Assembly (NCBI GenBank): GCA_951406725.2
Contig: OX597821.1
Location: 72,354,001-72,418,000, forward strand
Length of the DNA: 64,000 nt
Direction of reading: 5' to 3'
Source of the DNA: Octopus vulgaris
Taxonomy: Eukaryota
Shown here: in pieces, positions 5,222 to 53,678 of the stretch
Layout of the letters: every line of letters begins with the position of its first letter
How positions within the stretch are numbered: the first letter of the stretch is position 1
Translations under genes and position numbers: made by a program
Notes under the pieces: generated by a model
The model's database searches: none
What the model saw: only the letters and a program-made list of their open reading frames with translations
Told to the model about the DNA's origin: nothing

Positions 5222-5512
5222 GTGAGTATTTCTGTAAATTAAGATTGTTTTGGAGTTTGTTTTGTTTGTTGTTTTTTTGTGGTGGTGGGCGGGGGGGTAT
5301 GCCTATTGGAATATATTAACAGAAATATATTGTACGACAATGCAAAGTGAGCACGGCCTGAAGGTGATTTCTTTTTTTGGTGGAATTTGTGTTTAATTGT
5401 TTATTGACATTTTGTCATCTGTAAGGAGGATGTATGTGCATAATTCTGATTTGCTGGATCAAATATGTTGCCTGGTGGTTAATGTTTTTAAATGCCTTTT
5501 CTTTCATCTTAG

Positions 5513-5712
5513 TGTGTGCTGATCTGATCAGAGGAGCCAAAGAGAAACAACTAAAAGTTAAGGGTCCTGTTCGTATGCCTACTAAGATTCTCCGTATCAC
5601 TACAAGAAAGACCCCTTGTGGAGAAGGATCCAAAACATGGGACAGGTACCAGATGAGAATTCACAAAAGAATTATTGATCTACACAGTCCATCAGAGATA
5701 GTAAAACAGATT
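5513..5712 (+). CDS. RPS20: 40S ribosomal protein S20, exon 3
   Basis: Encodes (V)[70 protein letters not shown] boundaries. Confidence 0.97.
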
Positions 5713-5776
5713 GTATCCTTTTTGTATTTTTGTTTTATAAACAGTGTTTGGTGGAGTGAAAGGGTTTAAATTATTG

Positions 5777-19283: not shown

Positions 19284-19609
19284 GAATTTACCCCTAAAAC
19301 ACAGGACCTAGAACCTGAAGAATTTACCCCTAAAATATAGGGCCTGGAACCTGAAGAATTAACTCTTAAATCACAGGACTTAGAACCTGAAGAATTTACC
19401 CCTAAAACATAGGGCCTGGAACTTGAAGAACTTATTCCTAAAACATAGGACCTGGAACCTGAAGAATTTACCACTAAAACATAGGACCTGGGACCTGAAG
19501 AATTTATCCCTAAAACATAGGACCTGGGACCTGAAGAATTTACCTCTAAAACATAGGACCTGGAACCTGAAGAATTTACCCCTAAAACATGGGACCTGGA
19601 ACCTGAAGA
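19284..19609. repeat. 36-bp minisatellite, about 9 copies
   Basis: Unit GAACCTGAAGAATTTACCCCTAAAACATAGGACCTG. Confidence 0.95.
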
Positions 19610-20623
19610 AATATAATCACTGACATGATTACTCTCTAAATCAACAGTTTTAGAAGCAAAGCAGCATCACAAACCAATAATTTTCTTATTCTCACCCTGC
19701 AACATTTCATGTCATAAACCCACACAAGTCTTTCTCCAAATTACAACATTGATTCAGGCCAAACTCTAATCCACCACACTTTTCACAAACCTGGTAAAAA
19801 AATACATGATGCTTCATCCTCCGCACCACACCCACCATTCACCACAAACAACAACAGCAACTGTCATGAAGTATCACCAAGTCCTTTGTGAGCCGTTCTG
19901 CCAGATCAGATTGGAGTCTGGTGTAGCCATCTGATTTGCCAGACCTCAGTCAAATCGTCCAACCCATGCTAGCATGGAAAGCGGACATTAAACGATGATG
20001 ATTATGAATAAATGCTGGCCAGCAAATTACTTTCCTGGTTGCCCTGTCTGTAGATAACAACACACATAGAAGCAACAATTTTGAATGGAATACTCCAAGG
20101 ATCTATCCTCCAAGATTCTTGTGGTTTACCATTTTTAGCCTATATCTCCATGATGATTATGTTCCCATAGTCCACTTTTCCTTTATACAATTCTTCCAAC
20201 CACTTCAAAATCTGGTGCAAAAAATAATAGACCAGCATCTTCCAAATCCCCCCCCTCCCCGCATCCATTAAAAATCAACAATACCAAAGATTATCATTTC
20301 CAAACAACATTCTCAATACACAGAATTGCAATATTCCCAATAAATGGGGAAATATTGGTTTCAAATTTTGGCACAAGGCCAGCAATTTATGGAAAGGTGC
20401 TAGTCAATTACATTGACCCCTGTACTCAACTGGTATTTATTTTTTCAACCCCAAAAGGATGAAAGGCAAAGTTGACCCCAGCAGAATTTGAACTCAGAAC
20501 ATAAAGATGGATGAAATGCTGCTAAGCATTTTGTCTGGCAATGGTAACAGTTCTGCCAGCTTTCTACATGTGGAAATATTAAAGAAAGAAAGAGCATTTA
20601 TGCTCAGGAGACCTTGTATGAAA

Positions 20624-49954: not shown

Positions 49955-50134
49955 AATGATTCAGCAATAAAGTCTGCTGCTTTAATCCAAGAGAAGGAAC
50001 TGAGACACAAGACTTCAGTTTTGATACGTCTTATATTGATTGTTCTTCAAGGAGCCAAATTGTCTCTGCCATTGGCACAATGGTATATTCAGCAACTGAT
50101 GACAGTCTCCAAGAGATCTGCAAATAAATTTGGA
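49955..50134 (+). CDS. CPLANE1: CPLANE1-like coding exon 16
   Basis: NDSAIKSAALIQEKELRHKTSVLIRLILIVLQGAKLSLPLAQWYIQQL... Phase 0 to 0. Confidence 0.87.
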
Positions 50135-50661
50135 GTAAGTTTAGTTACCTGTCATTTAACCCTATAAATTATTTTTATGTTTCTTAATTACTTTGACATG
50201 AGAACGCTTCAGGTAATGACACTGAAAATTGTACCAATTTCGATGAAAATTTTGGAAAAATTTTTGGGAAAATTTTCGGGAAAATTATCGGCGAAAATTT
50301 TCTAAACATTTTTGTTTAAAATTTTCGAAAAATTTTTGTGGAAAATTTTCGGTGAAATTTTGGGGAAAAGTTTTGGGGAAAATTTTCGGCGAAAATTTTC
50401 CAAAAATTTTTGGGGAAAGTTTTCCATGAAAATTTTCTAAAAGTTTTTGGTGAAAATATTTGGTGAAAATTTTCGAAAAATTTTTGGGAAAAATTTTTCG
50501 AAAATTTTACCCAAAAAATCTTTCGAAAGTTTTCACCGAAAATTTTCCCCAAAAATTTTTCGAAAATTTTCCCAAAATTTTTCGAAAATTTTCACCGAAA
50601 ATTTTACTTTAAAAAGTTTCCGAAAATTTTACCCAAAAATTTGTCGAAAATTTTACCGAAA

Positions 50662-50854
50662 TAAAAATAGATGTTATGGCTAAAAATAGATTTTTATGTA
50701 GCTCTTGCTGCTGCTTTCTGTGTATAGAGTGAATTCTGGTTTAATATTACAGTCAAGATGCCTCACCATCCCCGATACACCAGATTCTGCTTTACACTTA
50801 ACAACTATGACGATATAGACTTCAGCATATGGAGCATATTCGTTATATGGGTTT
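50662..50854 (+). other. Endogenous CRESS-DNA-virus-like ori plus truncated rep, copy 1
   Basis: TAATATTAC at 50742-50750. ATG at 50758. MPHHPRYTRFCFTLNNYDD contains RCR motif I. Confidence 0.75.
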
Positions 50855-51774
50855 TCGAAAATTTTCCCGAAAATTTTACCCAAAAATTTTTCCAAAATTT
50901 TCACCGAAAATTTTCCCAAAAATTTTTTGAAAATTTTTGCCGAAACTTCTCTCCAAAAATTTTTCGAAAATTTTCACCAAAAATTTTTGCCGAAAATTTT
51001 CCCCAAAGATTTTTCGAAAATTTTCACAGAAATTTTACCTAAAAATTTTACGAAAATTTTCCCCAAAAACTTTTCGAAGAGTTCCACTGAAAATTGTACC
51101 AAAAATTTTTCGAAAATTTTCCCTAAAGATTTTTCGAAAATTTTAACCAAAAATTTTACGAAAATTTTCCCCAAAAATTTTTCGAAAATTTTCCCCAGAA
51201 ATTTTTGGAATAGTTTCACTGAAAATTTTACCAAATAATTTTCCGAAAATTTTCCCCAAAAGTTTTCTCCAAAAACTTTTCGAAAATTTTCACGGAAAAT
51301 TTTCCAGTTTTCACCGAAAATTTTAGCGAAAATTTTTCGAAAATTTTACCCAAAAATCTTTCGAAAGTTTTCACCGAAAATTTTACCCAAAAATTTTTCC
51401 AAAATTTTCACCAAAATTTTCCCAAAAATTTTTCGAAAATTTTCACTAAATATTTTCACCAAAAACTTTTAGAAAATTTTCATGGAAAACTTTCCCCAAA
51501 AATTTTTGGAAACTTTTCACCGAAAATTTTCCCCAAAAATTTCACCGAAAATTTTCAAAACTTTTCACCGAAAATCTTCCGCAAAAATTTTTCGAAAATT
51601 TTAAACAAAAATTTTTAGAAAATTTTCGACGATACTTTTCCCCGAAAATTTTCCCAAAATTTTCATCGAAAATTTTCCACAAAAATTTTTCAAAAATTAT
51701 CACTGGAAATTTTTCCAAAATTTTCACCGAAAATTTTACCTAAAAATTTTAGCGGTGCCAAAATCACAAATTAT

Positions 51775-52126
51775 GGCCTTCCATACTTTGTGATTTTGGC
51801 ACTGCTGGCCTTCCATACTTTTTGATTTTGGCACCACTGGCCTTCCATACTTTTTAATTTTGGCACTGCTGGCCTTCCATACTTTTTGATTTTGGCACCG
51901 CTGGCTTTCCATACTTTTTGATTTTGGCACCACTGGCCTTCTATACTTTTTGATTTTGGCACAGCTTGCCTTCCATACTTTTTAATTTTGGCACTGCTGG
52001 CCTTCCATACTTTTTGATTTTGGCACCGCTGGCTTTCCATACTTTTTGATTTTGGCACCGCTGGCCTTCTATACTTTTTGATTTTGGCACAGCTAGCCTT
52101 CCATACTTTGTGATTTTGGCACCGCT
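51775..52126. repeat. 32-bp tandem array, 11 copies, with an inverted leader unit
   Basis: Unit GGCCTTCCATACTTTTTGATTTTGGCACCGCT. 51751-51770 is the exact reverse complement of 52107-52126. Confidence 0.95.
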
Positions 52127-52374
52127 GGCCTTGTGATTTTTCGAATATTTTTACCCAAAATTTTTCCAAAATTTTCACCGAAAATTCTACCCAAAAATTT
52201 TTCGAAAATTTACCGAAAATTTTCCCCAAAGATTTTTCGAAAATTTTCACCGAAATTTTACCCAAAACTTTTACGAAAATTTTCCACAAAAACTTTTCGA
52301 AGAGTTCCACTGAAAATTGTACCAAAAAATTTTTCGAAAATTTTACCCAAAAATTTGTCGAAAATTTTACCCGA

Positions 52375-52580
52375 GCTAAAAATAGATGTTATGGCTAAAA
52401 ATAGATTTTTATGTAGCTCTTGCTGCTGCTTTCTGTGTATAGAGTGAATTCTGGTTTAATATTACAGTCAAGATGCCTCACCATCCCCGATACACCAGAT
52501 TCTGCTTTACACTTAACAACTTATGACGATATCGACTTTTATAGACTTCAGCATATGGAGCATATTCGTTATATGGGTTT
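52375..52580 (+). other. Endogenous CRESS-DNA-virus-like ori plus truncated rep, copy 2
   Basis: TAATATTAC at 52457-52465. ATG at 52473. RFCFTLNN, a 1-bp insertion, then YDDIDFYRLQHMEHIRYMGF. Confidence 0.75.
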
Positions 52581-53462
52581 TCGAAAATTTTCCCCAAAAA
52601 TTTTTCCAAAATTTTCACCAAAAATTTTTCCAAAATTTTCACCAAAAATTTTCCCAAAAATTTTTTGAAAATTTTTGCCGAAAATTCTCCCCAAAAATTT
52701 TTCGAAAATTTACCGAAAATTTTCACCAAAAATTTTTCGAAAATTTAACGAATATTTTCACCGAAAATTTTACCCAAAACTTTTTGCCGTTAATTTTCTC
52801 CAAAGATTTTTCGAAAATTTTCACCGAAATTTTACCCAAAACTTTTTGCTGTTAATTTTCCCCCAAAACTTTTCGAAGAGTTCCACTGAAAATTCTCCCC
52901 AAAAATTTTTCGGAAATTTACCGAATATTTTCACCGAAAATTTTACTCAAAAATTTTTGACGAAAATTTCCCCAAAGACTTTTCGAAAATTTTCACCAAA
53001 ATTTTACCCAAAAAGTATCAGTGACAGAAGATTATTATTATTATCATCATCATCATCATTGTTTAACATCTGCTTTCCATGCTGGCATGGGTTGGACGGT
53101 TTGACTGAGGACTGGCAAGCCAGGAGGCTGCACCAGGCTCCAATCTGATCTGGTAAGGTTTCTACAGCTTGATGCCCTTCCTAATGCCAACCACTCAGAG
53201 AGTGTAATGGGTGCTTTTTACGTGCCACTAGCACAGGAGCCATTCAGGTGGCACTGGCAACAACCATGCTCAAACAGTGCCTTTTGAGTGCCATCGGCAC
53301 AGGAGCCAGTCAATCTTGTGTTAACATGTTACTTTGAGATTTTGATGATGTGATTGTCTTAGAATGACTTTTAATTATAAAAAAAAAACGTATCCATTGT
53401 AGAAAGTGCTGGAAATTTTTTAACCATATTCTCTCTATTTTTTCCATTTTCATTTTATATAG

Positions 53463-53678
53463 AAAGAATTTGATGGTCCAATTATGGAATTTCCAGATAT
53501 ACTTTTGCATCTGGGAAGTGTGAAATCTAATCTTCAATCATTTACAACTAATACCAAATTTTTACCAATATTCTCTTCGTTTCGGAACTTTTGTGGACTC
53601 ACCTGGTTCCTACATGTCCGTGACCAGCTGTCATTGCATAACAGATTGCGAAGATCTTACATAGAAAGGCAGCGCATT
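53463..53678 (+). CDS. CPLANE1: CPLANE1-like coding exon 17
   Basis: FRNFCGLTWFLHVRDQLS (compare FRELCALCWMLHVRDKLS). Phase 0 to 0. Confidence 0.92.

Follow-up and report, generated by a model that had tools for sequence, protein, structure and literature searches.

How does a fragment of a viral replication gene come to lie, embedded in satellite DNA, in an intron of an octopus gene and at many other places in the genome, and is it the viral fragment that makes the satellite spread? The window, by which we mean the whole stretch of 64,000 nucleotides analysed (C8:72354001-72418000 of a 2.8-Gb Octopus assembly), has as its main gene one with a 99% match to an Octopus sinensis protein named CPLANE1-like, with 19 exon matches spread over the window. 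An intronic block of 2.8 kb lies between the CPLANE1 exon that ends at 50134 and the one that starts at 53463. The initial annotation read it as a candidate non-autonomous rolling-circle unit that had kept the cis-acting origin of a CRESS virus and was copied in trans by a Rep, generating satellite DNA as it spread. We propose that the block is probably one member of a dispersed satellite family that spreads by a form of copying and reinsertion indifferent to its ends, and that the viral sequence it carries is a neutral fossil.

Anatomy of the block in the CPLANE1 intron

The block starts 85 nt past the upstream exon, as first noted, and is a mosaic of a AAAATTTT satellite, a 32-bp array and two cassettes of about 200 bp. 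Its features and the flanking exons are as follows:

49955..50134, + strand: host CPLANE1 exon upstream of the block, 60/60 aa matching CPLANE1-like of Octopus sinensis (P0161)
50220..53023, no strand: the mosaic block in full, belonging to a dispersed satellite family whose members vary in their ends
50240..50508, - strand: G-rich arm of satellite in inverted orientation, which is an inverted local copy of 51401-51680
50509..50661, + strand: AAAATTTT satellite, C-rich strand, with a period of ~12 bp and higher periods of 24/37 bp
50662..50850, + strand: cassette 1, a TATA-like box within ~95 bp of upstream region, followed by the 5' end of a CRESS Rep gene
50742..50750, + strand: the 9-mer TAATATTAC in cassette 1, 7 nt before the ATG
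50851..51750, + strand: satellite that includes the inverted arm's partner and has the landmark at 51076
51757..51800, no strand: hairpin where the 32-bp array begins, -18.5 kcal/mol, z -8.85
51774..52132, + strand: 32-bp tandem array, 11.2 copies, 90% matches
52136..52376, + strand: satellite with the landmark at 52299
52377..52576, + strand: cassette 2, 9-mer at 52457-52465 and ATG at 52473, a local duplicate of cassette 1
52577..53014, + strand: satellite with the landmark at 52875
53463-53678: next CPLANE1 exon downstream of the block

The order first described (arm, satellite, cassette, satellite, 32-bp array, satellite, cassette, satellite) is borne out, and the pairing of the arm with its partner is specific: 50240-50508 scores 401 in local alignment against 51401-51680, whereas six other satellite segments score 142-253, and a core of 154 nt is 93% complementary. 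The landmark repeat, initially placed at four sites, is complete at three of them (51076, 52299 and 52875), while at 50220, as also at 51217, its last 11 nt stand alone; the higher-order duplication read from it is confirmed, the landmark-centred segments being 89-94% identical across ~168 nt. Cassette 1 has its ATG at 50758 and motif I as FTLNN, shifts frame after about codon 20 and contains no origin, and the frame of cassette 2 shifts past motif I; the sole differences between the two are one 1-nt indel and one 10-nt indel. As the arm and its partner pair specifically and the cassettes are nearly identical, the block is the product of recent local duplication and inversion. A hammerhead or other structured RNA was also considered and rejected, as Rfam gave sub-threshold hairpin matches only.

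Viral identity of the cassette and its candidate nonamer

The label 'ori/rep' first given to the cassette is half right. Judged by homology, the cassette is derived from the Rep gene of a CRESS virus, of which it has the first ~36 codons and, before them, an upstream region with a TATA-like box; a natural copy elsewhere carries Rep motif I in an open frame of 36 codons. A Pfam profile search of the genome revealed a whole HUH domain at C14:64337823 (Viral_Rep, 81.6 bits) in which motif I, HUQ and YxxK are present, and which sits inside a remnant of a Merlin/IS1595-type transposase and ends after about 104 aa. The cassette aligns to aa 1-38 of this domain, with E values reaching 5e-10, and its peptide is 68% identical to the first 34 residues. 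In database searches the closest relatives of the domain reach 41-54% identity along its length (a single partial protein 79% over 52 aa), and P0010 found no usable match in the ESM Atlas. Relatives in IMG/VR, where 80 of 94 loci were kept, are mostly circles of 2.0-2.3 kb (~2.1 kb). The motifs at C14, together with an origin TAGTATTAC at C15, point to CRESS-DNA viruses (Cressdnaviricota) as the source, and with its Rep homology and its chromosomal integration and decay the cassette is a CRESS-derived endogenous viral element.

This lineage of CRESS-type ssDNA viruses left several broken fossils in the octopus genome. Helicase-like pieces occur at 11 spots, 10 of them with E below 1e-4, and capsid-like pieces at 5; the six helicase loci that were read and the C14 locus are all broken, with no satellite adjoining them. 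The C15 fossil has an internal deletion and a frameshift in the endonuclease domain, the C11 piece is without its 5' part, and C14 is without everything past the endonuclease. One fossil is near unit length, with an origin, a Rep and a capsid-like ORF on the opposite strand; an Arg-rich N-terminus is a mark of capsid proteins. Possessing an SF3-type helicase, an origin in a stem-loop and, on the opposite strand, an Arg-rich ORF, the lineage looks viral. No intact Rep was found among the top candidates scored in each of the genome profile and homology searches, and the enzyme supposed to act in trans is represented there by broken pieces only; a Rep supplied by a free virus would not appear in an assembly.

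The helicase is present in the same Rep lineage at C15, C11 and other loci; a genome search with PF00910 gave 0 matches in 24 scored candidates, which is a false negative, as the C11 piece scores above the cut-off. Replitrons, eukaryotic repeats that likewise involve a CRESS-related HUQ/Y1 Rep, are described in the available text of PMC10288648 as elements of plants, algae and protists that have no helicase but a conserved second domain, and that bear short direct terminal repeats. The replitron parallel drawn at the outset was considered while the C14 Rep looked helicase-free; we abandoned it when the helicase-bearing relatives were found, and terminal repeats of that type common to copies were not found in 68 junction pairs.

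The 'ori' half of the label fails. In the window TAATATTAC lies at 50742 and 52457, outside any stem-loop (MFE -1.1 kcal/mol, z +0.99), with a stem of 1-2 bp at most; as given in the accessible part of PMC7826260, the CRESS nonamer sits in a loop closed by a stem of 9-11 bp. The fossil of the same Rep lineage at C15 (38.11 Mb) served as positive control for the fold test: there a 9-bp stem (z -3.94) encloses TAGTATTAC at 80 nt upstream of the ATG, and a TATA box comes next. Of the related viral circles, 69 small ones were examined and 11 longer contigs left out; in 62 of the 69 a 9-mer is in a stem of 8-18 bp, mostly 35-70 nt upstream, and none of these 9-mers reads TAATATTAC and none lies 7 nt before the ATG.

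Nor is the site constrained. Across 110 copies it takes 34 forms, TACTACTAC being found in 51, TAATATTAC in 9 and TAGTATTAC in 2, and its variability is 0.109 against 0.10-0.12 in the flanks. A tree of 101 distinct copies, with a distant outgroup on a long branch, places the -TATTAC forms in one nested group of 12 rows, the window included, with weak support (88/75), and the outgroup has ACTACTA at the site, as cassettes do. The C15 origin has two matches in the genome, both at the C15 place and 2144 bp apart. The real origin of the lineage was not amplified, and the cassette that was amplified carries no origin; three marks of an origin-dependent replicon, a stem, a conserved nonamer and unit boundaries at the nick, were looked for and not found.

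Dispersal, capture and decay

That the element is dispersed was correctly foreseen. When the C14 HUH domain was used as query, 148 of 150 scored candidates matched (173 candidates in all), two of them longer viral fossils and 146 cassettes, of which most stop by aa 38-41, the handful of longer alignments merely extending into satellite. The cassette is present in at least 146 copies at 37 or more places on 13 contigs, the 37 places having been tallied by hand as a lower bound and about a dozen of the listed ones seen as 3-kb stretches only or not at all. Over the 36 stretches fetched, satellite directly adjoins 149 of the 154 full 3' ends of the cassette and 108 of its 109 full 5' ends; at 144 of the 154 full 3' ends it is the C-rich strand of the satellite. 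Since it is nearly always joined to the satellite at the same two junctions, it was captured once, the event of capture itself being what we infer from the shared junctions. The cassette also adjoins the satellite in contigs of sequencing runs under four other organism labels, and among the loose cassette ends shown for these contigs (193 further ones were not shown) none continues into Rep.

Copies differ from one another by a median of 11.5%. The three codon positions vary alike (0.074/0.078/0.064) and the frame is broken in 43 of 80 scorable copies, so that no coding constraint acts on the cassette; its upstream region is no more conserved than the remainder. The decay is neutral.

The satellite is independent of its viral passenger. 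An exact pattern for the satellite 37-mer gave 171 genome hits and 0 in the control, and the first 100 of the hits fall at 35 places, 8 of which are known cassette places. Twelve of the other 27 were fetched and the cassette was found in none (0/12), five of these stretches covering only part of a longer array. A search with the 32-mer, in which 40 of 327 candidates were scored, listed 24 places, and at the 14 that were new to the cassette searches no cassette was present within 10 kb (0/14). All 26 of the 26 places sampled as new were thus free of the cassette, these stretches having been picked for their absence from the cassette list. The linkage holds in one direction: the cassette stays with the satellite, but satellite and 32-mer occur without the cassette. 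With tandem arrays of ~250 bp to over 7 kb at many unlinked places and no fixed ends, the family, a minisatellite whose ~12-mer is often accompanied by a 32-mer array, is dispersed satellite DNA.

At three places, on different contigs, the cassette is immediately preceded by the inverted 3' end of a Penelope-like element, and at a fourth (L229) such an end joins the satellite array; six other copies of the same element have no satellite array. Penelope-like elements form inverted ends. The fold-back of ~380 bp that precedes three cassettes, at first considered a MITE, is the inverted end of this element (its GIY-YIG match, E 0.0013, falls below the cut-off). As the Penelope-like insertion was copied along with the cassette to three contigs, neighbours and passengers are carried.

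Block ends and the route of spread

If a Rep nicked the 9-mer, copy junctions would be expected there, as initially suggested. Of 101 internal cassette breaks 70 are distinct, and 2 of the 70 fall within -13..-6 of the ATG where 3.2 are expected (P=0.83). One of these two, in copy L031, is exactly at the would-be nick, right after AATATT, and one block (L043) ends in an 11-nt match across the 9-mer site; both can be explained by microhomology, since AATATT is common in the satellite. By the terminus test 0 of 68 block ends fall at the nick, and the 68 junction pairs, some of which are internal splits of longer blocks, share no terminal motif, the commonest first and last 4-mers accounting for 4 and 6 of 68 ends. 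Termini of the CACTG type, suggested by the two ends of the window's block, were rejected, as other blocks do not have them.

Direct repeats of at least 5 nt flank 8 blocks against a mean of 6.4 after shuffling, and those of at least 8 nt flank 1 against 0.33; one block (L125) has a 14-bp target duplication, which fits retrotransposition better. With this one exception neither target-site duplications nor fixed termini or a tail were found, which speaks against a TIR transposon or a retroposed copy. Microsatellite targeting was likewise rejected (8 of 76 ends against a background of 10.4%, P 0.54). Both flanks fall on one repeat in 2 of 38 blocks in an empty-site test that used flanking repeats, and their offsets are inconsistent. 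The block maps show the order of modules to be scrambled and inverted from place to place; inversions often sit at palindromes, and a fold-back turn similar to the hairpin of the window stands between oppositely oriented 32-mer arrays at other places (e.g. L115, L120).

We propose that a piece of ~200 bp of one CRESS virus, devoid of the origin stem-loop, would have been captured once into a satellite array, pieces of which may then have been amplified through slippage and switches of template, with reversals of direction at the 32-mer hairpin and at palindromes within the satellite itself; the AAAATTTT palindromes presumably favour template switching. Array pieces with arbitrary ends would then enter chromosome breaks, probably either out of extrachromosomal circles or through templated break repair, a step suggested by the junction patterns and by analogy to Tribolium. 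The outcome would be scrambled mosaics of 0.2-8 kb and more, in which the cassette would be a neutral passenger, present in about a quarter of satellite places, and no driver of spread.

The main rival to reinsertion at breaks is an RNA route, by which satellite transcripts, possibly made from the viral promoter, would be reinserted by a Penelope-like or LINE reverse transcriptase. Such a route would account for 5' truncation and inversions, and it is consistent with the TATA-like box kept in the cassette, with the Penelope-like ends beside cassette and satellite, with the several blocks that start within the cassette and with the target duplication at L125. Yet we consider it unlikely, as target duplications overall are at the shuffled level, no 3' end or tail shared among the blocks was found, block ends are not enriched in microsatellites, the other six Penelope-like copies are without satellite and the upstream region is not extra conserved. 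It is conceivable, if quite improbable, that the captured module aids the spread of its satellite sub-family, either as a promoter through Penelope-like reinsertion or as a stemless nick site, which could come into use at times when CRESS viruses infect the germ line; if true, a satellite would here have enlisted a viral component to propagate itself.

A rolling-circle unit that keeps the CRESS origin and makes satellite when replicated by Rep in trans is very unlikely in our view, even though the cassette comes from a virus, is dispersed and is locked in its orientation relative to the satellite, the fossils show that the germ line met the virus lineage, the variants at the 9-mer site mostly fit NANTANTAC, and the L031 break and L043 end fall where a nick would be. 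Reps in vitro cut linear nonamers without a stem and accept substitutions (PMC7826260, in its accessible part). Against it stand the missing stem and a distance to the ATG that is wrong by comparison with C15 and 62 viral circles, the unconstrained site with breaks and block ends that ignore the nick, a real origin that was not amplified, a satellite that spreads without the cassette, and the broken state of every Rep found among the top candidates scored. Least credible of all is the other class initially invoked, a non-autonomous Helentron or Helitron of the HINE or DINE-1 type with central tandem arrays. Inverted repeats and a hairpin do occur in the block, and elements of this type disperse short satellite arrays in another mollusc, Crassostrea gigas, where Cg_HINE elements sometimes hold two types of array (available text of PMC7492417). 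However, Cg_HINE is described there with conserved flanks bearing subTIRs, a 3' palindrome and one fixed orientation, whereas no conserved left or right flanking modules, subTIRs or 3' palindrome were found in the 68 junction pairs, and the modules and arrays of the octopus blocks are scrambled and inverted between places.

The reading that we prefer, a dispersed satellite with a viral fossil aboard, has partial precedents. The closest viral one is that of the geminivirus-related DNA sequences of Nicotiana, GRD2/3/5/53, which with yam EGV1 consist, according to the parts of PMC5014472 available, of truncated, degenerate rep 5' sequence multiplied after integration to many repeats and drifting neutrally. 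The octopus cassette is likewise a truncated 5' part of a CRESS rep, multiplied and drifting neutrally; GRD, however, keeps an origin-like sequence and forms direct repeats at one or two chromosomal sites (same text), whereas the octopus piece is without origin, lies inside an unrelated host satellite and is found, in an animal genome, at no fewer than 37 places distributed over 13 contigs. In Tribolium castaneum, Cast1-9 arrays are found on all chromosomes with no preferred end, and their spread is ascribed to reinsertion of eccDNA and partly to transposons (bioRxiv 10.1101/2023.04.24.538079, in the portion available). The octopus arrays are also scattered and without preferred ends, but eccDNA was shown for Cast1-9 (same portion) and is a putative source in the octopus, and the octopus blocks differ in mixing several repeat modules, in their frequent inversions and in the viral fragment aboard. 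In listings of the open-access literature we found no report of octopus CRESS fossils or of this satellite family, and the accessible part of PMC6011040, searched for viral genes, holds nothing relevant.

The family is not a new kind of mobile element; it behaves as dispersed satellite DNA does, with a passenger aboard. That a viral fragment is present in many copies does not by itself imply that it replicates as a virus does. The fossils point to octopuses as hosts of an undescribed lineage of ssDNA viruses, and the cassette, captured once and now present in 150 or so copies, is a natural tracer with which the jumping, inverting and recombining of a satellite family can be followed across the octopus genome and in related species.

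Endogenous CRESS virus sequences and relatives of the Rep

Viral sequences in the Octopus vulgaris assembly (G000) lie on contigs C15, C14 and C11, and further fragments are scattered over C15 and other contigs.

G000:C15:38111400-38114130 (stretches L215/L222), endogenous CRESS virus, near unit-length
G000:C14:64337730-64338140 (L051), Rep endonuclease domain and its upstream region
G000:C11:25610200-25611650 (L217), second Rep helicase and capsid-like piece
G000 C3:10374663, C30:3380738, C1:220786338, C17:60801642, C15:76333366 and C1:161977533, further CRESS fragments
G000 C12:6093097, C31:6461566 and C31:3477798, further CRESS fragments, capsid-like

The C15 virus carries its origin in a stem-loop, with a second copy 2144 bp downstream, and encodes a Rep in which the endonuclease domain is broken and the helicase is also present, together with an ORF on the opposite strand that has an Arg-rich start. 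The endonuclease domain on C14 is open (~104 aa); it and the region upstream of it take the place of a short internal stretch of a Merlin/IS1595-type transposase remnant. In place of the 5' side, the C11 locus has other-strand sequence reading like a GPCR gene fragment. The further fragments, with identities of 31-71%, imply several integrations of CRESS sequence into this genome.

Two proteins from public assemblies, P0010 and P0012, are members of the Rep lineage shared by the cassette, the C14 domain and the C15 fossil, with identities of 79% over 52 aa and 54% over 103 aa; the relative matching at 54% has a similar start too.

Surroundings of the cassette and ends of the window block

L044:4975-4993, small AT-rich hairpin in the far 5' part of the cassette (z -3.29)
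L044:4580-4960, L042, L091 and L235-L240, copies of a Penelope-like element
L125:4897-5140, lone 32-mer array
Window 19284-19610, unrelated 36-bp tandem array (9.1 copies)

The L044 hairpin, from which the nonamer is absent, lies ~75 nt before the ATG, a position close to that of the C15 virus origin, and its counterpart in the window (50683-50700) is altered. The Penelope-like element, whose inverted ends are formed within TA repeats, is abundant (2043 candidates in the genome search). At three places, all of them no more than 8 Mb from a contig start and close to a 23-bp satellite, one such inverted end forms a fold-back that immediately precedes the cassette.

Both ends of the window block (50220-50230 and 53015-53023) are at CACTGA in opposite orientations, and the right end has 10 nt in common with the Penelope-like end; these features were absent from the other blocks compared. 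A 14-bp target duplication accompanies the lone 32-mer array of L125, which lies inside a common repeat. Elsewhere in the window, the frame at 5425-5769 resembles an exon of ribosomal protein S20.

Cassette variants in organism D

In run X9 of organism D, one of four other organism labels, contigs that together make up about half of the total contig depth show a linked set of differing letters in the cassette, which suggests a separate sub-family expansion in this organism.
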